Source: a virus
Taxonomy: Duplodnaviria > Caudoviricetes
IMG/VR virus record: IMGVR_UViG_2974613666_000001
Span: 1-64,000 of that record
Strand: one strand, 5' to 3'
DNA: 64,000 nucleotides
In this document: one piece after another, positions 759 to 21,536 of the stretch
Layout of the letters: the number at the start of each line of letters is the position of its first letter
Numbering within the stretch: position 1 is the stretch's first letter
Notes under the pieces: model-generated
What the model saw: the letters and a program-made list of their open reading frames with translations, nothing else
The model's database searches: none
What the model was told of the DNA's origin: nothing
Translations under genes and position numbers: made by a program

Positions 759-1055
759 TTGAGATATAACGAGATGGTTGATATAGTAGCGCTCAGGAAA
801 GGACAGCCAAAACCCGGTTCAGAGATAATCCTAGACGATCGCGTGTCTCTCGACAGTCACCAGCCTGTTGATGCTGGTTTAGATCCACTCGCTGTTGAAT
901 GTCTGAAGCACTATTATGGTATAGGTACGTCGACATTGAGTTTACGTGGTGTGGGTGCAAAAGTAGGTAGAAGCCATGAGCGAGTGAGCCAGATAATTGC
1001 TAACGCGATCACCAAATACAAAGAGTATATAATTTTACAAAGTTTGGAATTATGA
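759..1055 (+). CDS. Small sigma-70 region-4-like HTH protein (copy 1 of 3; start may be ATG 774)
   Basis: CLKHYYGIG...LSLRGVGAKVGRSHERVSQII matches the sigma r4 pattern L..R(F/Y)G....TL.E(V/I)G......RERV.QI. Confidence 0.65.
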   Translation: MRYNEMVDIVALRKGQPKPGSEIILDDRVSLDSHQPVDAGLDPLAVECLKHYYGIGTSTLSLRGVGAKVGRSHERVSQIIANAITKYKEYIILQSLEL

Positions 1056-1330
1056 AATTAAAGTCTGGACATAATATCATTTTCCATCCTGATCTAACAC
1101 CTAGAATAATTGCTCAGGTCGTAGGTGAGGATATTTGGTTGTGTCTGAAATATTATTATGGGGTTGGTACTGTAGCATTACCATCAAGGTTAATAAGTGA
1201 GAAGTTGGATATTGCCCAGGTTACAGTAGTCAGACGTGTTGGTAAAGGTTTGCTGACTTTAAAAAATTATTTGCAGTCATTAGAAAAGTTGAGGACATAT
1301 AGTAGTGATAAAACAAAAAGCAGGGTTTGA
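1052..1330 (+). CDS. Small sigma-70 region-4-like HTH protein (copy 2)
   Basis: CLKYYYGVG..ALPSRLISEKLDIAQVTVVRRV; paralogous to neighbours; ATGA-coupled to the upstream gene. Confidence 0.6.
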   Translation: MKLKSGHNIIFHPDLTPRIIAQVVGEDIWLCLKYYYGVGTVALPSRLISEKLDIAQVTVVRRVGKGLLTLKNYLQSLEKLRTYSSDKTKSRV

Positions 1331-1511
1331 GACTATTTTCGATCCTCGCGTTCAACTCACACCACAATTAGCTTTTGCATTAGGGATTGGCGATAATGCC
1401 CTGCAATCATTAATCCTTTACTATGGTGTAGGTTGTGAACCCTTATCAGCCAGGGCTACTGCTGAGAAATTAGGGATACGAGAAGACCAGGAGCGATCGC
1501 TCGTGTACTAA
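1305..1511 (+). CDS. Sigma-70 region-4-like HTH protein (copy 3, C-terminally truncated)
   Basis: SLILYYGVGCEPLSARATAEKLGI; homology stops at a HIP1 site at ~1493. Confidence 0.5.
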   Translation: MIKQKAGFETIFDPRVQLTPQLAFALGIGDNALQSLILYYGVGCEPLSARATAEKLGIREDQERSLVY

Positions 1512-1598
1512 TACATAAAATATATAAACCACAATCAAACAAAAAAGAACCCTGATAAGTAACTTATCAAGGTTCTTCATTTATTTAAGATTCGTGTG

Positions 1599-2231
1599 CT
1601 AATTCTGCGACCTTACCCATCCCAGTGTAGTGTTAGCAGCAATCCAGAAATTCTTACCAGTACACTCCATCCTTACCGCTTGCATGAATAATTCTGTATT
1701 CCATTCTTCCCTAGTAAATCCTTCTTGTTTAGGGCAACTATCTAGTCTATTTCTCAAATAATCTCGTACCTGCTTTTCTGTCGTGGGTACACCGTACTCT
1801 TTCATGTCCTCCATAGTTTTTACTTTAGAGAAGTTTCTCAGTATGTTCTCAATACAGGTAACTTTTTCTGGACTACCTTTTATGATTATTGGGCTTCCTT
1901 CCGTGGTCGGTGTAATATCTCCAGTTGTGTTATCAACTGTTGCACACACCTCTTGAGCATCCTTCTCAGCAGATTCTCGCATTTCTTCATACACCTGCTT
2001 GTCTATTTCTTCCCAGGCTAATTCCGTCAGCACTTTGACTTGGCTGTTAAGCTCTGCAACCTGAGAGAAAATCGAGCCTAGACCATTACTAGCGTCTTGT
2101 CCGTTTTCCAAAGCTAACAATTCTCTGGAAACAACCTTCTGCAATTCAAGTAAGGCTTTCGTGTATTGGCGTTTTTTAATGGTTAGAATCTCTTGAGCGT
2201 TCATCTGTTTTACCTTCTCTCTGTGGTTCAT
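1599..2231 (-). CDS. Hypothetical phage protein (coiled-coil N-terminus)
   Basis: 210-aa ORF ending next to a bidirectional hairpin at ~1546-1577. Confidence 0.55.
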   Translation of the reverse strand: MNHREKVKQMNAQEILTIKKRQYTKALLELQKVVSRELLALENGQDASNGLGSIFSQVAELNSQVKVLTELAWEEIDKQVYEEMRESAEKDAQEVCATVDNTTGDITPTTEGSPIIIKGSPEKVTCIENILRNFSKVKTMEDMKEYGVPTTEKQVRDYLRNRLDSCPKQEGFTREEWNTELFMQAVRMECTGKNFWIAANTTLGWVRSQN

Positions 2232-2493
2232 ATAACTACTATCTCAAATCTACAATAATGCGACAACCGTAATTCTACTGAATTTAATCATACACCATAC
2301 ATCAGTAATCTGAATACCAATAATCTAACCATTACTTAAATTCTCCCTCAACCCAATCAATACAATCCCCTACACACGATCGCCCCTCAGCCTTTACTAA
2401 CCTTCGCCTACTACGTGATTTATACCTGTGGTGAATCTTTACATCAAAATTGCACTGATGTACACACTTATTGAATCTGTTGCCTTTCATCGC

Positions 2494-2985
2494 CTAGAAC
2501 CTCTCGCCGTACCTATCAATCAGATCGTAGAACTCGCCCGGCTCACCAGCCTCAAACTTAACAGGTCTTACCCCAGCACACAATTCCAGCATTAACCCCT
2601 TAAGTAAAATCTTGAGGCACATTTGAGAACTACCCGCTTGCAGCGAAACCTTTGGAAACTTTATTACCCTTCTACCAGCCTGCAATGAGTAGAACAGGTC
2701 ATCAATATTTTGACGCTCTATCTCATTTTCTTTCTCAAAATTCAACTCCCCTCGGACGATCGCGCCTAAGACAGCTTTCAAAGGCTCATGAATGTTACAC
2801 CACACAGGTAGCTTATACCCTCTCAATACTGCTGCAACTTGATCTACTGGTGCATTAGTGAAAGATTGTTCACTGTGAATAACTAAGGTGCGATCGCTTG
2901 TCACCCCTCCTACGAGTATATGGCTTGATCTAAATGAGTAATAGCAGGCGATGATTTCTTTAGTAAAATTTGTAGGATTAAGCAT
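2494..2985 (-). CDS. Hypothetical protein
   Basis: 163-aa ORF co-oriented with the terminase genes. Confidence 0.5.
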   Translation of the reverse strand: MLNPTNFTKEIIACYYSFRSSHILVGGVTSDRTLVIHSEQSFTNAPVDQVAAVLRGYKLPVWCNIHEPLKAVLGAIVRGELNFEKENEIERQNIDDLFYSLQAGRRVIKFPKVSLQAGSSQMCLKILLKGLMLELCAGVRPVKFEAGEPGEFYDLIDRYGERF

Positions 2986-3332
2986 TTTTTCTAAAAGTTC
3001 CTATATATTGCTGTGGTAGCAGTACCTCGTAAGTTCTACAGTGTGGGTTTAGAATCACTATTATTCCCGGTACTTTCTTTCCTTTATCGTCTAGTGTGTT
3101 GAACGGCATCCAATCATTCACCTGATTAAATACCTTGGTATAAACATCTTGCACAAATTTATCCCATGTTGTTTTACTACCATTCTACCGTGCTTAGGTA
3201 GTGGTCATTGGTGATATGTTTCATAGTCATGAAAAAACTACTTAAAATAATTAAGTAGTTTTTCTGGTTATTTATTTTTGCATAGGCTAATCACTATTGA
3301 CCTTTAAGTGTTGCTCTATATAGTTTCTATCC

Positions 3333-3683
3333 TGCCCCAACGGAGTGTTGATTAAAGACTTAGGTAGCGGTTTGAATTACAAGAAGAAAGGACTTACCCA
3401 ACTCATATCTTTACTAGTTCAAGGAAATATAGCAGAACTGGTAATTACTTATAAGGATCGATTACTAAGATTTGGGAGTTAGTTAATCTTTGCATTTTGT
3501 GAACAGTATGGAACTAAGGCTACGATCCTGAACCAACCTACAGACTGCACTTTTGAACAAGAACTAGCGTCAGACGTGCTGGAAGTCATTACGGTCTTCT
3601 CTGCTAGATTATATGGATCTAGGAGTAGAAAAAATCTAAAGCTAATACAAGAACTACATAAAGTTACATCAGAAAATCTATAG
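3333..3683 (+). pseudogene. tnpA: IS607-family serine-recombinase TnpA remnant (5'-truncated, internal TAG at 3480)
   Basis: Manual translation: IKDLGSGLNYKKKGL...TYKDRLLRFGS*LIF...EQELASDVLEVITVFSARLYGSRS, the IS607 TnpA motifs. Confidence 0.9.
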
Positions 3684-3747
3684 AACTGACTATCAATATG
3701 TAAAAATCTAGTGTATAATTAGTGTAAGGTCGAAAAACACTAAATTT

Positions 3748-4971
3748 ATGCAATTAGTAGAGAAGCACGTAATTAGGAAAAACCATATATTCTGGAAAGA
3801 GTGTGACCACTTATCTTTGCAGTCTAAGCACCTCTATAATTCTGCTACCTACATACAACGTCACTACTTCTTTGAAACAGGTAAGTATTATAACTCGATT
3901 GATGTTTACCATCAAACCAAAGATTTAGAAGCCTACAGATACCTACCTACAAAAGTTAGTAAACAGATTGTCCGTAGGGTTTCAGAAGCTTGGAAAGGTT
4001 GGCAGGCTGCTTTAAGAGATTGGTTTAAGCATCCTGAGAAGTATTTAAGTAAGCCGAAAATGCCTGGGTATAAGCACAAGGAACGTGGTAGAAACGTTGT
4101 AGTATACCCTATAGATTCTCTATCAAAACCAGCTTTAACCAAAGGTACTATCAAACTTTCTCAGACTAATATTGAGTTTCCCACTAAGGCTAGAAACATA
4201 AATCAAGCACGTATCGTTCCGAAGCTCGATCACTACGTTATTGAGGTTGTCTATACAGTAGATGATCCTGTATCTAGTACAGGTAAATACTCTGCTGGAA
4301 TAGACCTTGGCTTAAGCAATTTAATGGCTATAACATCAAATCATCCCGGTATAAGACCGCTTTTGATTAATGGTAGACCTTTAAAAAGTATTAACCAATT
4401 TTTCAATAAAAGAGTGGCTAAAGCACAATCCTTAGAAGCCTCGAAACAAGTTAAAGCACTTAATGGTAAGCGTGACAGAAGAATTGATAATTATCTCCAT
4501 ACTGCCAGTCGTAGAGTCGTTGATTGGTGTCAGTTAAATGAGATAAGTCAGTTGATAATCGGCAATAATGCAGGCTGGAAACAAGATATCAACATTGGTA
4601 AGAATAATAATCAATCCTTCACCAAAATTCCTCATGCTAAATTGATTCATCTTTTAACTTACAAAGCGGAGTTATCCGGTATTGAGGTTATAGTTACTGA
4701 GGAAAGCTATACTTCTAAGGCAAGTGCTTTAGATAACGATCCCTTACCAACTTATAAAGCTAAATCAGAATTTAAGCCTGTGTTTAGTGGTAAGAGGGTT
4801 AAAAGAAGGTTGTATAAAACTTCAGCAGGTCAGATCATTAACGCTGATACTAATGGAAGTTTGAATATAGCTAGAAAAGTAATTCCTAACTTTATGGAAG
4901 GAATAGAGGGATTGCCGTTTATCCCTGTAGTTTTAGGACTTTGGACTAAGATTACAAACTTAAATCACTAG
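3748..4971 (+). CDS. tnpB: IS607-associated TnpB RNA-guided nuclease
   Basis: MQLVEKHVI start, GIDLG (RuvC-I), EESYTSKAS, INADTNGS; directly follows the tnpA remnant. Confidence 0.92.
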   Translation: MQLVEKHVIRKNHIFWKECDHLSLQSKHLYNSATYIQRHYFFETGKYYNSIDVYHQTKDLEAYRYLPTKVSKQIVRRVSEAWKGWQAALRDWFKHPEKYLSKPKMPGYKHKERGRNVVVYPIDSLSKPALTKGTIKLSQTNIEFPTKARNINQARIVPKLDHYVIEVVYTVDDPVSSTGKYSAGIDLGLSNLMAITSNHPGIRPLLINGRPLKSINQFFNKRVAKAQSLEASKQVKALNGKRDRRIDNYLHTASRRVVDWCQLNEISQLIIGNNAGWKQDINIGKNNNQSFTKIPHAKLIHLLTYKAELSGIEVIVTEESYTSKASALDNDPLPTYKAKSEFKPVFSGKRVKRRLYKTSAGQIINADTNGSLNIARKVIPNFMEGIEGLPFIPVVLGLWTKITNLNH

Positions 4972-6589
4972 ATTTATTTAGTTTTTTATGAACGGTTTGA
5001 TCAAGTGCCTTTGGATTACTGCATTTAACCAAAATATCCTTGCGTACGTCACCACCGTCAATCATATCTACCTCTACATCTTCACTACCCACGTCAGGAA
5101 TAGTTGATAAATCCCAGCCACCCTCATACTTATCAGCCACACTCACACCAAAAGCTAATGCCATAACCGTATCATCATTTTTACCATTGGCAGCTTCCAA
5201 TTTCTTACCTTGCCTACGGAAGTTTAATAATTCATCCACAATAGGACAATCTTCTGGGAAGTCTAATTCTTGTTTCTCCAACTTCAACAACAGTCCAGAA
5301 ACCAGGACAGGTTTAGTGTCACCACCAGTTCTAATTGCTGTAATATCTAAACCTGGATACTCCTGAGTCAATTTCTCTAAATAAAGTTGACCTACTCCAC
5401 CCGTGGTTTCAATTCCCACAACAGCAGGTTTATACTTATCGATTAACTCGCCTACCTGATATAGATGATACTCTGATGTCTGTTGACGCTTCCTATATAA
5501 TGCAACAACTGATAATTTTTTACCAACCCTTTTCAATACAACAGCTACAAAATAATCAGATCCAATAGTGGAAGTATCAATACCAATAAAATAATCAGCC
5601 CCAATATCACGCGCATCTTCCCAACAACCGATCGCAGCTTCCCGCACTACACTACTCAGGAATATCGAAACAGCACTATCAACAAACTCAAGATTATATT
5701 CCCGCAGCACAGTTTCCCTATCTGTACCATCTTGCTTCATCCTGTATTCTAGATAATCGTCGCGCTGTGAATATACAGGGTGACAAGTCCAATGCAGAAT
5801 TAATTTAACCGTGCCAATTTCATCTACCCACCAGTAAACACCGGGAATATCTTTATACAGTTCACCGTTGGCGACAGCTTTGCATAGCTGCTCAACATCT
5901 TTATCCCCGTTGTTTTCAGTCAACTTTGACCAGTACCAACCTGATTTAGCAGAAGGTGTGGATACTATCAACTTAGTGATACTGTCCCCAGCCAACGCAC
6001 CTGATGGTGACGATGCACTAAAAATCTGGTCGATACCTTCAACGAATGCAGCTTCATCAAATAGGAAGTCTAAAACGGAATCATACGATCTAGAACCTTC
6101 CTTACTTGAGTTCTTAAAGTAAATTTCCCCCAGACCCTTTAGCTTGAGGTGTCCTACGTTATCATTACTTGGTTGAACGTACTCTTTCAGACCTTCAAGC
6201 ATTTGTCTAGCACGACGGGATAATGCACCAGCATCATCGGCATTTCTCATAAACGCCATACTTGAGTAAGCCGGATTTAGGCAAGCGCGATGTAAGAATT
6301 TGGATGCGATCGCTTGTGTCGTTCCCAACTGTCTGGATTTTACGATAACCACGTTATTGTACTGATCCATCAGGCGACTGAGTAGAACCTGATAGTCATA
6401 GGGGATGAATTGTTTCATCTCACCACCAGACCTGATAGTACAGAGATTTACAAAATTATCCCAATTACTAGGTACTGGTTTGGTGATGATGCTGCGGTTG
6501 TCTATGTCCTTCTTGAACTGTTCTAGTTGTTGAAAGACATCACTAATTTCAAACCTAAAATCTGACCCGTAGTTACTCAGTTTTCCCAT
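4952..6589 (-). CDS. terL: Terminase large subunit
   Basis: KSRQLGTT Walker A, FLFDEAAF Walker B, IVSTP, nuclease GIDTS and NDDTVMA; ATG 6589 preferred over TTG 6607. Confidence 0.92.
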   Translation of the reverse strand: MGKLSNYGSDFRFEISDVFQQLEQFKKDIDNRSIITKPVPSNWDNFVNLCTIRSGGEMKQFIPYDYQVLLSRLMDQYNNVVIVKSRQLGTTQAIASKFLHRACLNPAYSSMAFMRNADDAGALSRRARQMLEGLKEYVQPSNDNVGHLKLKGLGEIYFKNSSKEGSRSYDSVLDFLFDEAAFVEGIDQIFSASSPSGALAGDSITKLIVSTPSAKSGWYWSKLTENNGDKDVEQLCKAVANGELYKDIPGVYWWVDEIGTVKLILHWTCHPVYSQRDDYLEYRMKQDGTDRETVLREYNLEFVDSAVSIFLSSVVREAAIGCWEDARDIGADYFIGIDTSTIGSDYFVAVVLKRVGKKLSVVALYRKRQQTSEYHLYQVGELIDKYKPAVVGIETTGGVGQLYLEKLTQEYPGLDITAIRTGGDTKPVLVSGLLLKLEKQELDFPEDCPIVDELLNFRRQGKKLEAANGKNDDTVMALAFGVSVADKYEGGWDLSTIPDVGSEDVEVDMIDGGDVRKDILVKCSNPKALDQTVHKKLNKSSDLSL

Positions 6590-6731
6590 CAGTCTCGCCA
6601 GATTCAATACGAGTTAACTTTTCGCCAAGGTTATTAAAGGTTCTGTCTTGCGCTGCGTCGAGCGATCGTCCTTGCAGCTTCACCTGGTTATTTTTTAGGT
6701 AGGCTATGAACTTATTTATGGTGTCCCTCAT
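6573..6731 (-). CDS. 52-aa hypothetical protein between terS and terL
   Basis: MRDTINKFIAYLKNNQVKLQGRSLDAAQDRTFNNLGEKLTRIESGETDGKTE; ATGA-coupled to the upstream stop and overlapping the terL start. Confidence 0.55.
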   Translation of the reverse strand: MRDTINKFIAYLKNNQVKLQGRSLDAAQDRTFNNLGEKLTRIESGETDGKTE

Positions 6732-7347: not shown

Positions 7348-8757
7348 ATGCAAGTTTTTAATATAGCCACGCTTTTCAACAACCTGAATCATTACGTCGC
7401 AGCGCGATCGCCCCTAGAGTTTGATGAGGGTAACGAGTTATTATCTAGCGTTGAAAAGCTTACAGAGTTAGCTATCCAAGGTTATGAACAACCAATTAGA
7501 GACATACTTCAGACTAGATATGCTGGTAAAATATCTGGTTTTAACCGGATTACAGTAGGTGAGAAGAGTGTGAGTGGTGAGTTCTATGATATGTACTCGC
7601 CTTTCCGCACCACTCGCAACACATTTTATATTTCTCCCACAAGAATTGATATTAATGTGATTGGTGGGAGTATGCCAGTTTACTCTGAAGTAGACTTCGC
7701 CGCAGCCGTAAGCAAAACCTGTGGTGATGGGAAAAAACCATGTAAGGTTAAGCGTGGATCAACAGAGTATTTCCGTTGTGTACCTAAAACTTGGAAACGT
7801 GCTGATGAAAAAGCAGCTTTAAAGGGTGCTATTAAGGAAGAAACCAAACGAGCTAAATCAACAGGTAGCTCTAAGCCGTCACCTAAAGAAGCCAAAGTAA
7901 TCGAAGGGATTATTGCTAAGAGAATTGAAGCACAGCAGGAAGGTACTCGGAAGTCTAAAAATAAATATGGGGTTAAGCCAGACGCTACGGCTAAGAAACA
8001 GGCTAAACCAGAGCAGAGATCATTGTTGGAGGGTATGTTCCCACAGTCGCGTAATGTTCCAGGTGCTGATAAGTTGAATGATGCTTTGGGTGAGATTAAT
8101 TCTAGACCTAGCAAAGTAGCCGAGTTAGCAGGTAAGCAAAGCACCAAGCGCAAAAAAGAGCGCAAAGGTAAATCTGATAAAGTTACTGACCTGTTTCAGA
8201 GAAAACTTGAGGAAGGCGATATTGTAGGGGCGATCGACCAAAGTCTACTTTTAGCTGATCAAGGTAAGAAAATAGCTAAAGAAGGCTTAGATAATATTCG
8301 CCGTAATCAGCAGGAAATAGATCAGGAGGTTGAAGACGCTTTAAAACGGTTCCCTAAGTTAGGTGATGATAAACCCGCAACACCCACACCTGATATTAAA
8401 GAACAAATAAATAACTCATTCAAAACCAAAGGCGAAAGGCTAGTTAATCAATCTCTGAACATACTTCTAGACAGGGGCAAGTTTAATCTCAATGACCCCT
8501 CTCAGTTAAAAATACTGGACGACGCAAGAGCTAAGGTTGAGGAACACGCAGAAGCTACGAAGTCCTATTTAGACAAGATTAAGGGTGTTGAAGGTTTAGC
8601 TGCTGAGTCTAGGAGAGAAAAGAAACAAAAGAGACTAGATGTTATCAATTCAGTCTTAAAGCAGTACGATGAGTCGGCAAAACCCAGTAAAGATAAGCAG
8701 AACTTATCTAACTACACCAAATCATCAGAAACTATAAACAGGGTAGCCGAAAGCTAA
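7348..8757 (+). CDS. LFxNL-leader family protein 1 (putative head-packaged protein)
   Basis: IATLFNNLNHY leader, shared N-domain, YSEVDF, Cys knuckle CGDGKKPC..C, Lys-rich C-terminus. Confidence 0.75.
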   Translation: MQVFNIATLFNNLNHYVAARSPLEFDEGNELLSSVEKLTELAIQGYEQPIRDILQTRYAGKISGFNRITVGEKSVSGEFYDMYSPFRTTRNTFYISPTRIDINVIGGSMPVYSEVDFAAAVSKTCGDGKKPCKVKRGSTEYFRCVPKTWKRADEKAALKGAIKEETKRAKSTGSSKPSPKEAKVIEGIIAKRIEAQQEGTRKSKNKYGVKPDATAKKQAKPEQRSLLEGMFPQSRNVPGADKLNDALGEINSRPSKVAELAGKQSTKRKKERKGKSDKVTDLFQRKLEEGDIVGAIDQSLLLADQGKKIAKEGLDNIRRNQQEIDQEVEDALKRFPKLGDDKPATPTPDIKEQINNSFKTKGERLVNQSLNILLDRGKFNLNDPSQLKILDDARAKVEEHAEATKSYLDKIKGVEGLAAESRREKKQKRLDVINSVLKQYDESAKPSKDKQNLSNYTKSSETINRVAES

Positions 8758-8875: not shown

Positions 8876-9647
8876 TTAACGCTTCTCTGGTAGTGTTGGC
8901 TTGATACCAAAAAATGTACAGTAACGTTCTACTGCTTCTATAGGCTCAATGTCTTGGTTATCGATTAAAGAGCAGATTGCATTCTCAGCAGCGTCTATTT
9001 TCTTCAGACATTTAGCTGTCAAGTTATCACGGGATTTATTGCGTTCACAGCCTAACTTAGCCTCTAGGGCTACTGCTTCCATACCAAACACGCTTAAATA
9101 CATCATGTTAGTAGCTCTCGCATAAACCCATTTTCTTGTAGTTATCAGACACGTTAGGGTGACGGAGTAGGTAATCTTTGATTGCATCTGTAAGCTCTCG
9201 TCTTGTGCCAATTCCTTTACTCCTAATGTCATCCCATAGCTTTTGTAACTTTTCTTGTGCTTCTAATGCTTCAGAGGTTAAGGCTTTAAACTCACCATTT
9301 ATAATCCTCATCAGCGCATCAGTAGCCCAAAGAGCGAAGTCGTCAGACAACCATATTGCTAGGTGTATAGCTACTTTAAAATGAACCCAAGTACCTTGTA
9401 AGTTCTTATCGTTACCACCTTCGATACTAATCGTGGCCGGTCTTCCGATCAGAAGTGCGGTAGAAACGCTACTAGCAAAGGATTTAGAAGATTTTAGTTT
9501 CCAATAGTTAGACCAAGTTTTCCCGTTAACCTTACACATTGCCGTAGCATTCACCCAACCTTTAGGGATTAAGTGGCCAGCAATCATTGTGTCTTCAGAA
9601 GTCTGATTGATTTGGATTCCATCGAAATTGTGTGCAATAATAGTCAT
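8876..9647 (-). pseudogene. KilA-N domain protein with a 1-nt frameshift near 9131
   Basis: WVNATAMCK...GTWVHFKVAIHLAIW (KilA-N); reading continues as KWVYARATN... in the overlapping frame after aagaaaatgg. Confidence 0.8.
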
Positions 9648-9955
9648 GTGACCTAGATTCCTTAAATTAGTTAGGTGACACCAGCGATAAGTAACAACAC
9701 GGGACGCTTCGACCCGTTCCGTGATTGTGCTGGTTTATACCATCATATCATTTGTTTTAATTATTTTACCTACCTGTGGTTGTGCCATAAGCGATACTTA
9801 ACATAAGCATCTCAATCACCCATAACTATGAACAGTAGTGACACAGCACACAATGACGATCGCACCTAACACCTAGATATAACCGCATAGTCATACATTT
9901 ATACAGTCATATCGCCTACAATGAAATAATTGAAACATATTATTTAAATTCTGAT

Positions 9956-11368
9956 ATGGTACTATCTGAAGCTTTACGCAGAGAAATAGCATCAGCCGAG
10001 CAAGATCCGAAATATATTTTATTCGACGGTGTACCGCAAACACCTGATGATACCCTGCGGTTTTTACTTGGTGGTGACTTTGATAAGTATGATTTAATCC
10101 TCAAAGACTCCAAAGCTAAAGCACTTCTAGAAGTCAGGGACAGAAACGTAAGTTGCCGTGAGTGGTATGTTGATCCAGCATCACAGTCACGCAAGGATAG
10201 AAAAGCTGCTGACGTTGTAAAAAATATTCTGCTAGGCTTTGACTTCGATCAAATGTGCAGTGACTTGAACTCCAACTCACTGTTGAAGGGTAATGCTTTC
10301 ATAGAGTTGAAGTGGGGTATAGATGGGCAAACCACATATATAGAAGATGCGATCGCCAAGCCTAACCACAGATTTAGGTTTGTGTTGCATAAAGGTGATG
10401 GTAATAAAGGCGCAAACGGCGAACCTATTGGGATTTTTAAAGGGTATCAGGTAAGGGTTCTATCACAGGGTAACTTTTATTTAGGTGCTGAAGTGCCTGA
10501 TAAAAGGATATTATGTCACGCTTACGAAAGACGATCTGATAATCCTTGGGGTATTGGCTTGGGGCGTGTTCTTTACTGGATGGCTGTAATCTTCAAAAAA
10601 GAACTGTGGAAACAGCGCATGATTTTCCTAGACAAACACGCACAGCCCACAGCACTTGGTAAAGCCCCACAGTCTGAAACTCAGGTTACTGATGTAGCAC
10701 AACGTAATGAGTTTCGTGAAGCAATGGAACGTATTCTTGCTGGTAAGTCAGGAGTGTTACCCCCTGGTTGGGAGCTAGACTTTTTACAGCCCTCTAGTTT
10801 AGGGTCTGATCTATTCCAAAGTGCGATCGACGCTATCAACGAAGAGATGTCGATGCTTGTGTTGGGTGAAACTTTATCAATGAGTTTACCCGGTGGTGGT
10901 AGCCGTGCTGCTGCTCAAACTCATGCTGAAGGTAGTAGGGTTTATCTTGCTAAGTATGACTCAGATAGACTATCAACAGGGGCTTTGAGGGAATTAGCTA
11001 AATGGATTACTGAGCTAAATGTTGAGGGTGCAACTCCTCCACAAATCTGGCGCAAGTTCCCTGAGTTTGATGAAACCGAAGACCCAGCAAATCGCATTAG
11101 CAGAGATAGCCAGCTTAACTCCTTGGGCTACAAAATATCACCTGAAAAAGTACAGGAAGTTTATGGAGATGGTTACATCGATTTGGAAGAAGCTAAAGCA
11201 CAGCAGGAAGCTGAAAACCCACCTGCCCCCAATGCTTTCAATATCGGATTTAGCGAGATTGATCCTGTTAACCACGAGTATCTGACTGCAAAAGCTATGG
11301 CATTTCAGCGTAGCATGAGTAAAAAGCTTATTTTACCCAATAAACGTTTACTGGTTCCATCTAGGTAG
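9956..11368 (+). CDS. Portal protein, Mu gp29/DUF935 family
   Basis: DNPWGIGLGRVLYW, FLDKHAQP, INEEMSMLVLGETLS, GSRAAAQTH motifs. Confidence 0.9.
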   Translation: MVLSEALRREIASAEQDPKYILFDGVPQTPDDTLRFLLGGDFDKYDLILKDSKAKALLEVRDRNVSCREWYVDPASQSRKDRKAADVVKNILLGFDFDQMCSDLNSNSLLKGNAFIELKWGIDGQTTYIEDAIAKPNHRFRFVLHKGDGNKGANGEPIGIFKGYQVRVLSQGNFYLGAEVPDKRILCHAYERRSDNPWGIGLGRVLYWMAVIFKKELWKQRMIFLDKHAQPTALGKAPQSETQVTDVAQRNEFREAMERILAGKSGVLPPGWELDFLQPSSLGSDLFQSAIDAINEEMSMLVLGETLSMSLPGGGSRAAAQTHAEGSRVYLAKYDSDRLSTGALRELAKWITELNVEGATPPQIWRKFPEFDETEDPANRISRDSQLNSLGYKISPEKVQEVYGDGYIDLEEAKAQQEAENPPAPNAFNIGFSEIDPVNHEYLTAKAMAFQRSMSKKLILPNKRLLVPSR

Positions 11369-11744
11369 CCGTTTTGGTTTAAATAACAAAAAGATCCATG
11401 AGTTTTTAGGAGGAGTAAAAGATAAAGAAGGTAGAGCATCATTAGCAGCAGAAGAGGCAATAGTAAATGTAGTCGAACACTTATCTAGAGGAGATAGTTT
11501 TGAAGCAAGCATAACTAATGGTATGCAATTAGCTAGAGTTATAGCTAGGGCTGGTGCGGATGCGGAAGGGGCTGAATACTTGAGATCAGATGAGTTTAAA
11601 TCTAAGTTAGAGGATTTAACTAGAAAAATCTTTACCAATGATAATTACAATGAGTATATGAAGTTGGTTAGAGACGCTAATAAAGTATCTGGGACAGTAA
11701 GAAGTTCTGGGAATGACTTTACAAATACAGCAAGTGGCGGTTAA
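11361..11744 (+). pseudogene. Headless (orphan) effector C-terminal cassette
   Basis: Frame open from 11319 with no start upstream of the homologous region; RFGLNNKKI..VKDKEG..EEAIV aligns with the C-terminal domain of 19682..21298. Confidence 0.6.
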
Positions 11745-11748
11745 TTAA

Positions 11749-11949
11749 ATGAATGAGTACGTAAAAAAGTTTTTAGAAGAGTGCCATGCTGATGGAGAAC
11801 CATTAAGTAAAATACCTTTTTTATTGCAGGGTTTTGTGAAAGCTCTAGCAGCAATTCAGGATAGTGGTGAACTATATCGTAATTCTCAAGATCCAGAATG
11901 GTTACAAGAACAGATAAAGGAATCTGGGTTGAAATTCAAAGACAAGTAA
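11749..11949 (+). CDS. Small partner (putative immunity) protein, paralog of 21339..21536
   Basis: EYVKKFLEE...DG..L...FL...F....A....SGEL aligns with EYIKAIRED...NG..I...FI...F....A....SKEL. Confidence 0.65.
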   Translation: MNEYVKKFLEECHADGEPLSKIPFLLQGFVKALAAIQDSGELYRNSQDPEWLQEQIKESGLKFKDK

Positions 11950-12004
11950 TATACAACCACATAACCAACAGGTTATACTTGAGACATATCACAAAAAGCC
12001 ATAT

Positions 12005-13498
12005 ATGCCTCATCCTACACAAACACTTATTACCGACAACCTAGACTTCCGCAGGTCGATCGCCTCTGCATTCGATCCATCAACCGATTACTCAGAAGTA
12101 CCACAGGCTGAGATTGATGGAACGTTTGAGGCGATCGTCTTTCAATTGCTATCTCATTATCAGACTTCCCAAGCATCCCCTGAGTTTACAGAATCTAAAA
12201 CAAACCAATTACCTGAAACAGGTGATACAGTTACTTGGAAATGGGGTAAAGGTCGGGGTGTAGGAACTGTTACCAAAGTCTACACTGAACCCACGACTAT
12301 TACTATTGAGAAATCTAAAATAACTCGCAATGGTACAGAAGAAAACCCAGCTTTACTGATTGCACAGGATAACGGATCAAAAGTTTTGAAACTTGCATCT
12401 GAAGTTACTGTTACAAGAGATGCTGATCCTTCGGACACAGCGATCGCATTTAGCTTTGATTTTGATGGTAGATATGACGATATTGATCTGACCCCTACCA
12501 AGGGAATGGTGCAAGCAGCTAAGAAAGCACTTGATTATATAAACGAAGGGTATGGTGGTGATGGTTTAGAGGACTCAACTATACGATGGGTACGGAAAGT
12601 TGCCAAAGGTGAGCCATTATCGATTGAGAAAGCCAAGAAAGGGTACAAGTTTTTTCAACGTCATAATTATTTCAAGCAGAACAAAAATAAAGGAGATACA
12701 AACCCTAATTCACCTGCGCCTTGGTACGTAGCAAGAATGGCTTGGTTTGGTGACGATGGGGAAAGATTCTTTAACCGTGTTTGGCGACAGATTAAAGCTG
12801 CTGATTCTGAGTTTAACGAACCAACTCCTTACGGTAATGCTCCTGAATTTGGAGAATTTGAACCAGAATTTGGCTGTGTAATTCATAAAGTAATCCCCTG
12901 GAATGGTTTAAAGTTAGGTGTAGAATATCGCCCCGGTGACATCAGATTTAAAGGAAGTAAGCACGAGCGCAAACTTAAATCTGGTTACGGACACATCAGA
13001 GGTTACAAAGGCAATGACAAGGAAGCGCTAGACTGCTATCTTGCACCAGGATTTTTTGATGGTTCACTAATAACCAAAAATATGTTTCTGGTTGAACAGT
13101 TAAAAGCCGATACAGGTGAGTTTGATGAGGAGAAGATTCTAATAGGCTATAACGATATTGATCACGCCAAAGAATGCTATCTTACAGAGATGTCACCTCA
13201 ACACTTTGGTAGCATTAAGCTAATTAGTTTAGTTGAAATAGATAAATACCACAAACGTCACTGCAATAAAAACTTAGAGAAACTAATTAAGAGTTTGAGC
13301 GATCGCTTGTCGCAGTTAGAATTTGAGCAACGATCGTTTGAAGAAGTACCTAAGTCACGGCGTAAAGCCAGAAAAGTCAATATTGCTGAAGATTTAGATG
13401 TAGATAACAGTGATGAGGCTGTATTTGAAGCAGCCAAGAAAATGTTTGAAGCCGCTAGAGAAGCAGAAGAACTACAAGGTGAGGTAGGTAATGTTTGA
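12005..13498 (+). CDS. Polyvalent head-associated protein: DUF2945 Tudor-like, helical head-morphogenesis-associated domain, inorganic-pyrophosphatase-like domain
   Basis: GDTVTWKWG..G.V..VY...ITRNG.EENPA; PTKGM...FFQRH...VARMAWFGDDG; YGHIRGYKGNDKEALDCY...EFDEEKILIGY. Confidence 0.75.
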   Translation: MPHPTQTLITDNLDFRRSIASAFDPSTDYSEVPQAEIDGTFEAIVFQLLSHYQTSQASPEFTESKTNQLPETGDTVTWKWGKGRGVGTVTKVYTEPTTITIEKSKITRNGTEENPALLIAQDNGSKVLKLASEVTVTRDADPSDTAIAFSFDFDGRYDDIDLTPTKGMVQAAKKALDYINEGYGGDGLEDSTIRWVRKVAKGEPLSIEKAKKGYKFFQRHNYFKQNKNKGDTNPNSPAPWYVARMAWFGDDGERFFNRVWRQIKAADSEFNEPTPYGNAPEFGEFEPEFGCVIHKVIPWNGLKLGVEYRPGDIRFKGSKHERKLKSGYGHIRGYKGNDKEALDCYLAPGFFDGSLITKNMFLVEQLKADTGEFDEEKILIGYNDIDHAKECYLTEMSPQHFGSIKLISLVEIDKYHKRHCNKNLEKLIKSLSDRLSQLEFEQRSFEEVPKSRRKARKVNIAEDLDVDNSDEAVFEAAKKMFEAAREAEELQGEVGNV

Positions 13499-13658
13499 GC
13501 TATTTAGTAATTTACGTGGTTATATTCAAGAGTCAAGAGGTGATGAGGCTGCTGAACTAATCTCACCTGTGAGTAAACTTAGCCAACTCAAACCGAGTGG
13601 TTGCGGTTGTCACACCTGTAAACAATCAAAAGGGAAATCTCTAAAGTGTCATTGCTAA
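13491..13658 (+). CDS. 55-aa stand-alone LFxNL leader protein with Cys/His-rich tail
   Basis: MFELFSNLRGYIQESRGDEAAELISPVSKLSQLKPSGCGCHTCKQSKGKSLKCHC; GAGGT RBS; overlaps both neighbours. Confidence 0.7.
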   Translation: MFELFSNLRGYIQESRGDEAAELISPVSKLSQLKPSGCGCHTCKQSKGKSLKCHC

Positions 13659-15523
13659 CATTATTTACCAACCTAGAACATAAAATACAGGGTGATACTT
13701 TAGATTTTCATGAATATCCCCTTGAGTTTCAAGAATTACTAGACAGCTTCACTATTCTGAACTTTCAAGAAACTGGCTTAATCCTGAAGGATTTAATTGA
13801 ATCAGTCTACACTACAGGTATTCACAGCCTGGATGATGTGGATGAGAAAGATGGTGTGATTACAGGTGTATTTCAAGATAAATCAGATTCAAAAAAACCA
13901 CGTAAATTTAAATTCACTATTGATGAAAATAAGATAGTTTATAAAGAAATATTAGATCCTGAGTTTAGTGAGCTAGATGTAGAATTTAGTGATTTCTTAA
14001 ACGGCATTGTAGACTTCAAAGCCCCTAAAACACCCCCAGCAGCTAAAAAAGGGGAGAAAACGAAAGCGGATAAGTTAGGACGGGTTCAAGTTTGTGATCC
14101 CTCAAAATCCTTCGTATGCGGTGCTTCTTGCCAGAAAAACGGACGTAACTGCGCTTCTAAAGTGTCAACACCAGAGCAGAAACAGCAGTATCGGCAGGTT
14201 GTAGAGCGATCGCAGCAGATGAAGTCTGAGGACTTGGGGCAGTATCTGACTAGCAAAAAAACACCCAACAAGAAGGAGAAGGTTTTATATAAAAAAGAAC
14301 TAGAAGCTACGGACGAGACTCCCGCACCATCTGTAAAGGAAGTAACCACACCGAAACCTGAAAAAAGAGCTTCCAACTTGTCACAGTACATGACTACTAA
14401 AGGGAGCGTAGCAACATCTAAAACACGTTTAACTAAAAGTGATAGTAGCTTAGGTGCTACATTAAAAAAAGTCTTTGATAGATTTAAGGATAGGGTCGGT
14501 AAGGTCATAGACTCATCGGCTGCTAAAGTCGAACAAATGTTGTTTGGTGGTACTTCTGATAAACCTGAGAAGGAGAAGCCCAGTAGTCCCCCTAAAATCA
14601 ATAAACCTGCTGTACAGCCTGAAAAACCTAAAGAGTACCTTGAGATTAAGCCTAAGAACCCGCAGATAAAAGTTAACAGTAATGAGTTACAGGAAAAACG
14701 TGAGTCTTTAGTAGCTAAGTTTGGGGAAAAATTGGTAACTGATGCTGAAAACAATGTTTCAAAAATTATAAATGATAAGGACACTAATGTTTATATTCGT
14801 GTTGGCTCATCTGAGACGCTAGGTTTTATATTAGGCGATAGGTTTAAACCCGCTCATGAGTTAGGTGGTAGACCAGGGGGTGCTGATGATTATCTAGCTA
14901 AACGAGCAAGAGTAGAGGAAAAAACTTTAGGATATTCTAAGGACACAGAGCCGAGCGATCGCCCTATATACGGTTACTTGGGAGGGTCTGATTTAAAGGG
15001 GACTGCACACCAAGACGCTGGTAAGGCTTATGGGTCTATTTCCGTTAAGTTAAAGCCAGATATTAAAGATAGGGCAACGTTTACGGGTGCTGATTCATTT
15101 AAATCCGGTATTGCCTCTGAGATTAGGCCAGGGGAAACACCACCACCCCCAAGTGCCGCTTCTTTAGTACCATCTACGAGGGGTGGTAAAGATATAACTG
15201 AGGAAAAGCGTAGAAATGATAAGAAATACTTAGACCATGCGGCTAAGTCAGAAAATATTGATGATCTGGTTTCTGGTTTAGCCTCATCCGGTAACAGATA
15301 TATGGAAGCTCAGTTACATGGTAAAGTAGGCTTAACAGATATTGCAGAGCTACACTTCAATCCTGAAAGCGATCGTGACTCGCCTAACGAGAGTATATTT
15401 GATATTGCCGAGCAGCATAATATAAGTGTGTTTGTGAGCGGTGAGAAAGTCACTAGAGATTTTTTAAAGCGAGCAGCCCCAGAAACTACAGAACAACTAA
15501 AAGAAAATGAAAGTAATAAATAG
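13646..15523 (+). CDS. LFxNL-leader family protein with DUF3626-like C-terminal domain
   Basis: LLTLFTNL leader, shared domain, CDPSKSFVCGASC..C knuckle; RPIYGYL..YG..RATFTGADS..YMEAQLHG. Confidence 0.75.
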   Translation: MSLLTLFTNLEHKIQGDTLDFHEYPLEFQELLDSFTILNFQETGLILKDLIESVYTTGIHSLDDVDEKDGVITGVFQDKSDSKKPRKFKFTIDENKIVYKEILDPEFSELDVEFSDFLNGIVDFKAPKTPPAAKKGEKTKADKLGRVQVCDPSKSFVCGASCQKNGRNCASKVSTPEQKQQYRQVVERSQQMKSEDLGQYLTSKKTPNKKEKVLYKKELEATDETPAPSVKEVTTPKPEKRASNLSQYMTTKGSVATSKTRLTKSDSSLGATLKKVFDRFKDRVGKVIDSSAAKVEQMLFGGTSDKPEKEKPSSPPKINKPAVQPEKPKEYLEIKPKNPQIKVNSNELQEKRESLVAKFGEKLVTDAENNVSKIINDKDTNVYIRVGSSETLGFILGDRFKPAHELGGRPGGADDYLAKRARVEEKTLGYSKDTEPSDRPIYGYLGGSDLKGTAHQDAGKAYGSISVKLKPDIKDRATFTGADSFKSGIASEIRPGETPPPPSAASLVPSTRGGKDITEEKRRNDKKYLDHAAKSENIDDLVSGLASSGNRYMEAQLHGKVGLTDIAELHFNPESDRDSPNESIFDIAEQHNISVFVSGEKVTRDFLKRAAPETTEQLKENESNK

Positions 15524-15842
15524 TGACAGATTTGACGATGTGGAGTTTTTACCAGAAGGGGAATTTAAAATTATAGGTACAGCCGGAGGTGTGGATTTGT
15601 ACCTAGTTGGCAAAGATGAGGATGGTGAGGAAATAGTTGCTAAGGAACTTCCCAACTCAGAGTTATTTGCTATACCAATGTACGAACTCTTATCTCATTC
15701 TCAGGACAAAATCGTGCTGTATGATCAGCCATCTACAGCCACTGAAATGAGTGATGCGGATAGGGAATCTGCCAATGAATCAATAAGTAAATTACAGGAT
15801 GCTATAAAAAAGGCTACTAAGAAACCTAAGAAAGATAGTTGA
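15507..15842 (+). CDS. Small acidic partner (putative immunity) protein
   Basis: 111 aa, acidic, overlaps the stop of the upstream effector-like gene. Confidence 0.6.
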   Translation: MKVINSDRFDDVEFLPEGEFKIIGTAGGVDLYLVGKDEDGEEIVAKELPNSELFAIPMYELLSHSQDKIVLYDQPSTATEMSDADRESANESISKLQDAIKKATKKPKKDS

Positions 15843-15917: not shown

Positions 15918-16874
15918 ATGTATCTTTCAATACTGTTTCGTAACCTCCAAATATACAGACCTACCAGCACAGATTTAGACTTTTGTGAGTTTATCAAGCC
16001 ACTGGACGATTATTTTTACAGCTTCCTAGAATTTGTTGCACCTGCAGTAGTGGATAAAGACGGGGCAACTGCTGGTAGGTGGCGAGATGCAAATGGTAAG
16101 TTTATCACTATGCCCGACATCTTACAGGAGGATGTGCGTGGTGGTATCAAAAAAATGGTGCAAGATGGTAATAGAAACACTGCACGGAGATTGCTACAGG
16201 ATATCAGTAAGTCTAAATTACTCCAACTGACTGGTAAAGATGCCTATAAAGCTACTGTTGAGAAAATAAAGAGGAAGTATAGGGGTAAATCTTTTGAACT
16301 GGGCTTGATATCAGCTTTGCAGATTGAAAGTAGGGTAAAAAAAAAGGCTATTTCTGATAAGCTTATTGAATTACAAAAAATACTGAAGGAGACTAAGGAA
16401 GACCCTAAAGCCGAACCAGCTAACCAGATAAAGCTAAAGTTGGCAAACGTTGAGATTGAGACAGTTAAACTGAACAAGCTAGATATATTTGATAATTTAG
16501 ACAGAGACAGTAAAGACCTGAAAGTTGATGATAAGAGAGCTATTGAAGTTATTGACGAGTACAAGAAACAGGTTAAGAGGTACAATTCTATAGCTGAGAA
16601 ATTGAAAAACTCAGATAACATAAGCGCTTCAGAGTATGACGACTTATTTAATGAGCGTGAGAGTCTATGGAAAAGTATGGTGGGTAGCAAATCATCACCG
16701 GGGACAATAGGTAAAGCCAGAAAACTCAAGAATAAATTTCTGAGTGAACCAATTTTAGATGAGTTTATAGAAGCAATCGCTAGTGTTTCAAAGGAATCCC
16801 CTGGTGGTGTGAGGTTAGAGATCCCAAAAAATATGGATGCTATTAAAGCGAAGATAGCACCCGATCCTTGTTAA
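15918..16874 (+). CDS. LFxNL-leader family protein, short leader variant with RDANGKF motif
   Basis: LSILFRNL, DFCEF, GRWRDANGKF (RDxxG[RK]F motif of phage head-associated proteins), helical Lys-rich body. Confidence 0.65.
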   Translation: MYLSILFRNLQIYRPTSTDLDFCEFIKPLDDYFYSFLEFVAPAVVDKDGATAGRWRDANGKFITMPDILQEDVRGGIKKMVQDGNRNTARRLLQDISKSKLLQLTGKDAYKATVEKIKRKYRGKSFELGLISALQIESRVKKKAISDKLIELQKILKETKEDPKAEPANQIKLKLANVEIETVKLNKLDIFDNLDRDSKDLKVDDKRAIEVIDEYKKQVKRYNSIAEKLKNSDNISASEYDDLFNERESLWKSMVGSKSSPGTIGKARKLKNKFLSEPILDEFIEAIASVSKESPGGVRLEIPKNMDAIKAKIAPDPC

Positions 16875-19681: not shown

Positions 19682-21298
19682 ATGACCAGTGTTATTGCAG
19701 AATTATTTTGGAATCTACACACTTTCCAACCACTACTAACTGCCGTCGAGTTCGGAGAAGTGATCGCACCTCTGGAATCTGTAGAGTTTTCAGCGCCTAC
19801 GGTTAACGCTGATTTTGACGAAACGGGCTTACTGCTGAAAGAACTGATTGAGGAGACTTTCACCGACGGTGTAGATAAATTTGAAGGTGTGACTATAACT
19901 GGACGTGGGATTACAGGTGCTTTCTACTCGGATAACGTTAAGTATAACTTTAAAGTTACACGTAATGCTGTCCAGTATAAGCAAGCCGCTACTGCTGATA
20001 TGCGAGAACGTAGTAGGTTAGCTGTTACATTCTCAGATATGATTGAGTTTGCTAAGGCTAAAAAACCTGTAGCTGTGGGTAAGAAGTCAGGTGTTGACAA
20101 ATTAGGGCGCACTAAAAACTGTAACCCTGAGAAATCATTCCCCTGTGGTGCGGCTTGTGTGAGAAATGGATTTGGATGTAAAACAGCCCCTAGCACCAAT
20201 CAGAAAGCACTGTTTGATCAAGTTGTACAACGTGCCAAAACTGGTAATAAGTATGGCATGAGTAAAGGAGAGACAGCCACTAAGATGACCAACACTAGAA
20301 AGAAGCTACCTAAAGTTGAGGCAACCAGACCTACAACAGGAGCAGCAGCTAAGTGGCGATCGGATGTAATGAACGGGCTGAATAAACGACTAGCTGGCAA
20401 GAAGCCCGACTACGGGGATACGCAAGTTAATGATCTTAAAGACAAAGAGATACAGTGGACTAAACACCCACTAGCTAAAGGACGTGTACTTGAGGTAAAG
20501 GTAGCTGACTTAGAAAAAGCTTGGAATGATAAAGAAAATAGGGTTGAAGCCGACGGTAAGGGTGGTATTGGTAAAAGATATGAAGATGCTAAAAACTTCA
20601 TGTTGAATAACCCTAAAGTCAACATGATTGAAGTAGTAGCCAAACCTGATGGTAGTGTAGTGTTCAAGGACGGTCGCCATAGGTTTGCAGCATTACGTGA
20701 TTCAGGTAGGGAAACTATAAAGGTGGTGGTTCAGGACAGTAAAAACTGGAAACCAAAAAGTGATAAAAAACAGGAACAACCTGACAGTAATGAGCAGGTT
20801 ACACAGAATGATAATCTATCTAAATGGAAAGGTTCTAAAGAATTACCGTCAGAACTTAATGAGAAATTAAAAACCTTTGTACCTCAAAAACCATTGACTG
20901 ATGAAGAAGTTCAAAAAGCCACTACAGACTGGGTTACTAAGCAAGGATTTATGGATTTCAGTGGTCATGATAGAACACACATTGTAATGCAAAGAATGAT
21001 AGGTTTAGAATCAAAGGATATAGCTATGGCGACTAATGTGGATACAGAGGGTGTCACTGAGCTAGAAGAGTTCATTCTTATTGCTGCTTATGATTTAGTT
21101 AAGCAACCAGACATCACGTTTAAAAAGCTGGTAGAAGGTACTAAAAGTAAAACAGAAGCTCTAGCAAATAGAGACGGACATCCTAATGTGGATAAACTTA
21201 TGACAGAGCTAGTACAGAGAATGTATGACCACCCTTATAAGACTGATTATCTAAAGCAGTTTAGGAGTGTGTGGCCTGATAGTTTATTTTACGTTTAA
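19682..21298 (+). CDS. LFxNL-leader family protein with ParB/Srx-like domain and C-terminal HDxxH domain
   Basis: IAELFWNL leader, ETGLLLKELIE domain, CNPEKSFPCGAAC..C, FKDGRHRFAAL, GHDRTH...EE. Confidence 0.75.
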   Translation: MTSVIAELFWNLHTFQPLLTAVEFGEVIAPLESVEFSAPTVNADFDETGLLLKELIEETFTDGVDKFEGVTITGRGITGAFYSDNVKYNFKVTRNAVQYKQAATADMRERSRLAVTFSDMIEFAKAKKPVAVGKKSGVDKLGRTKNCNPEKSFPCGAACVRNGFGCKTAPSTNQKALFDQVVQRAKTGNKYGMSKGETATKMTNTRKKLPKVEATRPTTGAAAKWRSDVMNGLNKRLAGKKPDYGDTQVNDLKDKEIQWTKHPLAKGRVLEVKVADLEKAWNDKENRVEADGKGGIGKRYEDAKNFMLNNPKVNMIEVVAKPDGSVVFKDGRHRFAALRDSGRETIKVVVQDSKNWKPKSDKKQEQPDSNEQVTQNDNLSKWKGSKELPSELNEKLKTFVPQKPLTDEEVQKATTDWVTKQGFMDFSGHDRTHIVMQRMIGLESKDIAMATNVDTEGVTELEEFILIAAYDLVKQPDITFKKLVEGTKSKTEALANRDGHPNVDKLMTELVQRMYDHPYKTDYLKQFRSVWPDSLFYV

Positions 21299-21338: not shown

Positions 21339-21536
21339 ATGACAGTCGTGGAAAAGTTTAAGAAAGAAGCTAGAGAGTATATAAAAGCAATAAGAGAGGA
21401 CTTGGAGGTAAACGGTACTGATATAGATTACTTCTTATTCATCTGTAAGAGTTTTCAGAATACTAAAGCGCTGATGTATAGCAGTAAAGAGCTTAGAAAA
21501 GCAGACCTTACTGAGTTCTTTAAAACGTTTTACTAA
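21339..21536 (+). CDS. Small partner (putative immunity) protein
   Basis: Follows 19682..21298; paralog of 11749..11949. Confidence 0.65.
   Translation: MTVVEKFKKEAREYIKAIREDLEVNGTDIDYFLFICKSFQNTKALMYSSKELRKADLTEFFKTFY

Follow-up and report, generated by a model that had tools for sequence, protein, structure and literature searches.

The window analyzed here, a stretch of 64,000 nucleotides (nt), is the first 64 kb of a 145.4-kb virus record in IMG/VR (IMGVR_UViG_2974613666_000001; Caudoviricetes). In the region searched, positions 9956 to 13498, it is 99.3% identical to Nodularia phage vB_NspS-kac65v162 (MK605244; Ravarandavirus, Baltic Sea; our contig L002), hereafter called the sister phage. 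Our subject is the end of the Mu-type portal gene, where an open frame without a start codon and a small gene, which we call the partner, follow one another inside the head-gene block. The order of this block is large terminase, KilA-N gene, Mu-type portal, a run of large “cargo” genes, and a prohead protease/scaffold gene (22855). The locus comprises the following features.

9956..11368, + strand: Mu-type portal gene, 470 residues (Pfam Portal_Mu, E 1.2e-70; PHROG portal; blastp and tblastn matches to the portal fusions P0010, P0021, and P0022)
11258..11372, + strand: junction, consisting of a unique 36-residue portal tail, the stop codon TAG (11366-11368), and 4 more nt (tblastn of 47 family proteins against 11101-11420; three-frame search with a hidden Markov model, HMM)
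11373..11744, + strand: start-less relic of a C-terminal domain, covering the last ~124 of ~190 residues (phmmer, HMM, codon usage)
11523..11744, + strand: open reading frame (ORF) of 73 residues from the first ATG inside the relic, the sole piece that could be started conventionally (gp015, “hypothetical protein,” in MK605244)
11749..11949, + strand: acidic partner gene, 66 residues, isoelectric point (pI) 5.0 (starts 4 nt past the relic stop; 48% identity to the L003 partner; alignments A4 and A5)

A beheaded domain behind the portal

The frame from 11319 to 11744 is open over 142 codons, lies at +1 relative to the portal ORF (9956-11368), and contains no ATG, GTG, or TTG ahead of 11523. Between the portal stop and this first ATG, its codon usage scored 0.46, compared to -0.56 to -1.05 for the other forward frames and 0.26 to 0.39 for real genes of the phage in the same measure. 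The frame is not a chance ORF. An exhaustive phmmer (HMMER) search with the headless frame against 1.84 billion representatives returned 49 proteins at an E value of 1e-3 or lower, 13 of them at 1e-30 or lower, with a best value of 6.7e-39. Once the window's own 73-residue ORF and one spurious HEAT-repeat protein were set aside, 47 true matches remained. Query residues ~19 to 141 align with the extreme C termini of these larger metagenomic proteins (149 to 1120 residues), most of which are 45 to 62% identical; for the C termini of P0002 to P0043, this identity range goes with E values of 6.7e-39 to 1e-20. Five of the 47 are Portal_Mu fusions of 840 to 1120 residues, one of which (P0021) has an InPase domain too.

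When compared to the family HMM, the relic matched positions 274 to 395 of 395 (E 5e-60) and, in a domain-only HMM, positions 92 to 213 of 213 (E 5.9e-53). It retains EEAIVN..EHLSRGD and the C-terminal ...TASGG but is without the third of the domain that carries WAK..GF, NGF, and HD..HP..H. Family homology in the window begins at 11373, 4 nt past the portal stop, and the earlier part of the domain, including the H-D-x2-H-P-x2-H, W..G, and NGF motifs, found no match in any forward frame of 10900-11372 by HMM or tblastn search. Since the H-D-x2-H-P-x2-H block is absent from every frame, the frame is the relic of a beheaded domain. A loss that reaches from the portal tail into the middle of the domain has taken away the domain's first third, with every invariant His and Asp; what is left is a true decapitated copy that retains the EE/N/E/SRG positions, and not a complete copy disrupted by a frameshift. 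This confirms the original prediction, which had described a headless frame lacking its HDxxH segment.

Unlike the family members, the relic is not the C-terminal part of a larger translated protein, as there is no start before 11523 and the portal stops at 11368. The relic probably goes untranslated or gives a fragment of 73 residues at most, whose ORF (11523-11744) has no evident Shine-Dalgarno sequence. The relic cannot be an active enzyme.

Portal homology with the fusion relatives stops at residue ~434 (motif GFSE, nt ~11257). The 115-nt junction that follows (11258-11372) gave no family-member match in any frame, either by tblastn with the 47 proteins or by HMM search of three frames. 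Its sequence is identical in the sister phage and invariant in contigs of four environmental runs, and the deletion or recombination breakpoint falls within it. A resemblance seen by eye (FS...K...PI), which would have meant decayed upstream homology across the stop at 11316, was unsupported by HMM or tblastn.

Searches were also made with the C terminus of 19682, a cargo protein encoded downstream. A tblastn search of 50,697 phage records with the relic and with the 19682 C terminus found the sister Nodularia phage only, and a word-indexed protein search at near length returned no match for the relic and only its own protein for the 19682 C terminus. No related loci were found in IMG/VR with the portal as the query, and no DNA repeat connects the relic region with 19682 and the small gene behind it (21339), or with any other part of the window.

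Intact relatives and the partner gene

Contig L003, from IMG/VR, is syntenic with the window and has the domain intact. Its terminase is followed by P0010 (1031 residues), of which the first 380 residues are a portal 36% identical to that of the window, the middle is similar to the N-terminal leader/ribbon region of 13646 and 19682, and the last 118 residues share 56% identity with the relic. After P0010 come a 64-residue gene 48% identical to 11749 (E 5e-19) and then homologues of 15918, 16892, and 17152. In L004, a portal-InPase-ribbon-domain protein (P0021) is followed, 3 nt on, by a 70-residue gene. Both fusions are in frame and full length. Judging from these sequences, the portal itself is the likely carrier of the protein lost from the window. 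The leader/ribbon region of L003 also lies in frame behind the portal in direct comparison (L003:2484-5579; blastp 2e-6 and 3e-5).

Ahead of the part retained in the relic, intact relatives have ~65 further conserved residues (ED..GRKP ... W.K..GF ... NGF ... T.AHD.AHP.TH). Nine positions are invariant in the 47 sequences, namely, G56, H73, D74, H77, E110, E111, E118, G123, and F160 (P0018 numbering), and P78, H81, N115, S121, and R122 are among 18 nearly invariant ones. His, Asp, Glu, Arg, and Asn are frequent at the conserved positions, and the sequences otherwise have ~13% identity per column. Judged on conservation only, these invariant His, Asp, and Glu residues would fit a metal-dependent hydrolase.

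For a 208-residue family member, AlphaFold2 with an alignment of 47 sequences gave a confident, all-helical model of ten helices (predicted local distance difference test score [pLDDT], 93.7; predicted template modeling score, 0.90). With this model as the query, Foldseek gave no clear match in the PDB (best E 0.37), VIA-align against 48,161 chains reached a best Z of 4.6, under the tool's stated noise level for helical models, and the best E value in BFVD was 0.18. Weak rows for lysozyme-like/GT51 glycosyltransferase folds recurred in VIA-align at Z 4.0 to 4.3, within noise for helical models. Profile searches with the domain reached E 0.31 at best in the PDB and gave no usable match in the protein atlas; no Pfam family, including the polyvalent-protein-associated ones, matches the terminal domain. 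There was no clear fold or profile match of the intact domain to HD phosphohydrolase, zincin, PAP2, PLA2, or lysozyme-like folds. The domain is therefore a previously undescribed family, with no Pfam family and no matching fold found. The HDxxH...EE segment had at first been left unrecognized and tentatively called a metal-dependent effector, with Foldseek proposed as a check. The domain is indeed unknown to Pfam and the PDB and has enzyme-like invariant positions; the effector activity stays putative.

The family is rare. Members that we looked up were metagenomic singletons or came from contigs of cyanobacterial metagenome-assembled genomes, and only 1 of 401 sampled cyanobacterial genomes had the domain. 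Two metagenomic Ser/Thr protein kinase clusters, P0047 (707 residues) and P0050 (667 residues), have a distantly related copy of the domain at their C-terminal end (E 4e-8 and 1e-3, respectively; ~30% identity); it thus occurs beyond portal or leader cargo.

A small gene lies next to the domain gene in five of six distinct loci (L003, L004, the near-duplicates L005/L006, L008, and L009, but not L007), starting 3 to 11 nt past the stop of the domain gene or overlapping it. In alignments A4 and A5, the small proteins form a single family with a pI of 4.2 to 5.0, and the eight database relatives of the window partner (E 5e-23 to 8e-9) are all 64 to 80 residues long. In L003 (5570-5593), L004, L005, L008, and L009, the codons for the domain's terminal Ser-Gly-Gly read GGAGG at Shine-Dalgarno distance before the partner start, so that the last residues of the domain also serve as the ribosome-binding site of the partner; window 11730-11751 has GGCGG where the sister phage has GGAGG. 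Given this adjacency, the family alignment, the spacing, and the GGAGG sequence, a conserved pair of partner and domain genes is well supported, and the two are probably translationally coupled. Family matches and conserved adjacency thus substantiate the predicted arrangement, a decapitated C-terminal module with an intact small gene right after the portal.

Among sampled cyanobacterial genomes, a partner gene turned up in 1 of 57 in one search and in 2 of 401 in another; the extra match, L013, is cut off by the end of its contig. The Anabaena sp. PCC 7108 chromosome is the recorded source of one homologue, P0056. In L005 (3581-4210) and L006 (1717-2346), the partner homologue is not a separate gene but forms the first ~60 residues of a 209-residue protein, which runs on into the FSE/FAE ... 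DFAAP leader and the Cys-rich ribbon of the next cargo protein.

Of the 576 nt of relic and partner, 11 differ in the sister phage, compared to 54 of 12,858 nt in 14 neighboring genes, a 4.6 times faster rate of change (Fisher p 9e-5). The differences in the relic comprise 5 nonsynonymous and 1 synonymous substitutions, and the sister partner gene carries a CAG>TAG change at codon 27 together with a frameshifting insertion of 1 nt in an A-run close to the end of the gene. Contigs of four environmental runs showed only two haplotypes at this site. The nonsense allele was the sole allele seen at 11827 in three DNA metagenomes from three studies (2022-2024), and the window haplotype with its intact partner gene was found on 26 contigs; a third variant, P0059, has the A-run insertion only. 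Contigs from RNA libraries (X15) also cover the region, which is no demonstration of transcription or translation. Since the partner has been knocked out and yet persists in nature, the module of relic and partner looks dispensable.

These comparisons correct the annotation of MK605244, in which gp015 is a domain fragment and gp016 is a truncated partner gene. The next gene, gp017 (L002:10742-12343), is annotated 36 codons longer than the 12005 gene of the window (12005-13498). An extra A at 11937 puts an upstream ATG in frame, and the long start of gp017 is thus probably an annotation artifact of the A-run indel.

The 19682/21339 pair

The original prediction had linked the locus to a second pair of genes in the head-gene block.

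19682..21298, + strand: full-length cargo protein, 538 residues, with an N-terminal leader, a Cys-rich ribbon, a weak ParB-like middle, and a divergent copy of the domain (hhalign, HMM)
21339..21536, + strand: 65-residue gene in the partner position after 19682 (pI 7.8, neutral, unlike the acidic family)

The ParB matches of 19682 are weak (E 0.091 in Pfam and 0.0037 in PHROG), and its domain copy corresponds to residues ~403 to 530 (nt 20888-21271). The proposed alignment of the headless frame with the 19682 C terminus failed in pairwise comparison (BLASTP E 3.5; z of about 0 in shuffled Smith-Waterman alignments) but held at the profile level, where hhalign of the family profile with residues 403 to 530 gave a probability of 72% and an E value of 3.4e-5 over 127 columns, in the register first proposed. 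The domain-only HMM matched the 19682 ORF at E 1.7e-4, with the next best of 205 window ORFs at 0.56, and a wider HMM that includes the Cys-rich ribbon matched it at E 4e-11. Most of the profile signal comes from W(V)TKQGF ... HD..H....GLESKDI in the N-terminal third, which is missing from the relic, and an HMM of only the two-thirds of the domain retained in the relic found no match to 19682. The 19682 copy has HDRTH, with the third His, N115, E118, and S-R-G replaced, and it is conserved between the window phage and the sister phage. A single-sequence AlphaFold2 model of the 19682 C terminus was all-helical and of low confidence (pLDDT 57.7), too uncertain to compare. Overall, the 19682 C terminus is probably a divergent paralogue of the relic's domain.

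The homology that had been claimed for the two small genes proved borderline. An ungapped 40-residue Smith-Waterman alignment of 21339 with 11749 scored 49, a value reached by 1 of 20,000 shuffles and the best among 210 small ORFs of the window, but BLASTP gave no match and the partner-family profile did not recognize 21339 (hhalign E 0.17 and 0.24; hmmsearch E 6.4). From these comparisons, the chances that 21339 is a very divergent paralogue of 11749 seem to us about even.

The N-terminal leader (LF.NL ... (D/E)F.E ... EF.AP) is shared by four head-region proteins (7348-8757, 13646-15523, 15918-16874, and 19682-21298), and the Cys-rich ribbon C..K.F.CG..C...G..C is common to three of these. 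By their motifs, the leaders would fit capsid-targeting leaders cleaved by the prohead protease.

Origin and possible role of the module

We consider the region to be the decaying leftover of a capsid-delivered cargo module, with a partner gene that is intact here but dispensable, and give this reading a probability of roughly 75%. In related cyanophages, the Mu-type portal or a separate leader/ribbon protein bears a long extension ending in the all-helical domain of ~190 residues. The intact cargo would be built into the prohead, freed by the prohead protease at F-x-E-type sites, and ejected into the next host, where the domain would work as a metal-dependent hydrolase. The partner, produced in step, would bind the domain in the producing cell, whether as an inhibitor, which we somewhat favor, or as a folding or packaging helper. 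In the window phage, a deletion or recombination event from the portal tail to the middle of the domain took out the body of the cargo along with the domain's first third.

Several observations weigh against this reading. The relic's frame is still unbroken over 142 codons, its codon usage resembles that of genes, and its identity to intact relatives reaches 62%; this points either to a recent loss or to constraint that is still acting. The portal stop lies just 4 nt ahead of the first homologous codon, as a +1 shift at the stop would require. All differences from the sister phage fall in a single two-haplotype patch (11458-12101) that may be one recombination import, and 5:1 is a small count; the rate argument is thus suggestive rather than decisive. 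Moreover, we infer the enzymatic activity, the ejection, and the partner binding alike.

A substantially less probable but real alternative keeps the relic as it is and changes the role of the pair: rather than an effector with its inhibitor, the pair would consist of a small protein that serves capsid cargo in folding, in packaging, or as an adaptor, and of a C-terminal domain that is not an enzyme but has a structural role or binds DNA or the portal. The placement of the partner N-terminal to the leader of the next cargo in L005/L006 suggests that it is able to travel with capsid-targeted proteins. The 19682 domain no longer has the third His or the N/E/SRG motif but is nevertheless conserved between the two phages; searches of the PDB, VIA-align, and BFVD gave no hydrolase fold match, the domain is not basic, and the pair does not have the usual charge complementarity. 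On the other hand, the 47 sequences share 9 invariant and 18 nearly invariant positions, in which His, Asp, Glu, Arg, and Asn abound; such a pattern is typical of an active site. For the partner itself, a packaging-helper or chaperone role is a serious and equally open rival, and we use the effector-plus-immunity label as a working hypothesis.

The original prediction had seen an orphan immunity module. In such a reading, the small gene would be kept by selection because it neutralizes the injected domain of competing phages or the phage's own 19682 protein. The decapitated module with a conserved partner stood up, but retention by selection was weakened by the sister stop, and we regard this explanation as unlikely. 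It would account for the intact partner gene in the window haplotype (26 contigs), for the conservation of the partner family beside the domain, and for the homologue P0056 on the chromosome of Anabaena sp. PCC 7108, and phage MuF polymorphic toxins have downstream immunity genes (PMC5576092). However, the stop at codon 27, being the sole allele seen at 11827 in the three metagenomes of 2022-2024, makes the partner gene dispensable in nature. Cross-protection is doubtful as well, given that the 11749 profile is blind to 21339 and that the 19682 domain is very divergent, and the fusion of the partner ahead of the next capsid cargo's leader in L005/L006 would be odd for an immunity protein.

Least probable of all, and in our view very unlikely, is expression of the headless frame, by a +1 shift in which AGG-TAG-C at the end of the portal gene would be read as AGG-AGC, giving some portals a 125-residue C-terminal extension, or by reinitiation of a fragment that would still bind the partner or maintain translational coupling: homology does begin in the +1 frame 4 nt past the stop, this frame is open and its codon usage resembles that of genes, relatives carry the domain as a portal extension, and the junction is invariant across environmental runs, but the site has no slippery or re-pairing P-site codon and no Shine-Dalgarno-like stimulator in 11330-11368, the relatives do not share the frameshift (their fusions in L003 and L004 being in frame and full length), the product would be without all invariant His and Asp, and the relic substitutions run at 5 nonsynonymous to 1 synonymous. 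A programmed +1 frameshift of the prfB type would likewise have its stop after AGG, but the shift-prone codon, the stimulator (11330-11368), and conservation in relatives are absent.

The decaying cargo module that we favor can be set beside several known systems. The T4 internal proteins and Alt, and the Dar system of P1, are capsid-targeted, protease-processed, and ejected. Like these, the proteins 7348, 13646, 15918, and 19682 have an N-terminal leader bearing F-x-E-type motifs that resembles capsid-targeting sequences; unlike them, they show no sequence relationship to the T4 and P1 proteins, and their packaging and cleavage are putative. Orphan modules of a toxin C-terminal region (CT) with its immunity gene exist in contact-dependent inhibition (CDI) and Rhs systems, which the locus resembles in having a truncated CT beside an intact partner. 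It differs from them in that the partner is knocked out in the sister haplotype and in that the relic has no DNA similarity to the resident full-length gene and so cannot be swapped in through homologous recombination.

Virion-packaged effectors fused to a portal or MuF protein are well established, as described for polyvalent proteins (Iyer, Burroughs, Anand, de Souza, and Aravind 2017, PMC5512222). In keeping with these, the domain of the relatives ends multidomain Mu-type-portal fusions, sometimes with InPase (P0021), in a head-gene context, and the window neighbors 12005 (Hva1_TUDOR plus InPase, a polyvalent-protein architecture) and 13646 (DUF3626) are of the same kind. Unlike the polyvalent systems, the domain has no Pfam family and comes with a dedicated small partner gene, and the window holds only a start-less fragment. 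MuF polymorphic toxins of temperate phages carry downstream immunity genes (Jamet et al. 2017, PMC5576092). The arrangement is similar here, with a variable C-terminal domain on a head-associated carrier and then a small cognate gene, but the carrier is a portal or leader-ribbon protein, and toxicity and immunity are putative.

Although the relic itself is ordinary gene decay, it leads to an undescribed domain family with active site-like invariant positions, a dedicated partner, and a structure that is confidently predicted but found no counterpart among either solved structures or viral models. Cyanophages, among them a cultured phage of bloom-forming Nodularia spumigena, carry the family on portal fusions and on other proteins packaged in the head, and it offers a tractable way into the roles that capsid-delivered cyanophage proteins play once they enter the host. 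One natural haplotype has an intact partner and the other a knocked-out one, which makes for a ready-made comparison. A bolder proposal, which we hold to be improbable, is that the domain and its acidic partner constitute a new capsid-delivered effector-inhibitor system with a new fold, used by cyanophages in the first minutes of infection, with lone partners acting as a defense. If so, stand-alone partners such as 11749 and the Anabaena sp. PCC 7108 homologue would guard against the effector of competitors, and the relic with its partner would be a snapshot of phage-phage warfare.

Other head genes and differences from the sister phage

A second arrangement of cargo plus small partner lies within the head block. 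Overlapping the end of the gene for the DUF3626 cargo protein (13646-15523; Pfam E 4.5e-9) is a gene for a very acidic protein of 111 residues (15507-15842; pI 4.5).

Compared to the sister phage, the large terminase gene (4952-6607) has 9.2 differences per 100 nt (135 synonymous and 18 nonsynonymous) between nearly identical flanks and is clearly a recombination mosaic under purifying selection. The intergenic region 9500-9955, with 58 differences, is another hot spot. The left ends of the two phages are rearranged, with only short blocks aligning (86 to 96% identity) between window 1-4971 and L002:1-3658, and the sister phage carries IS200/IS605-type transposase genes at 1003-2705.

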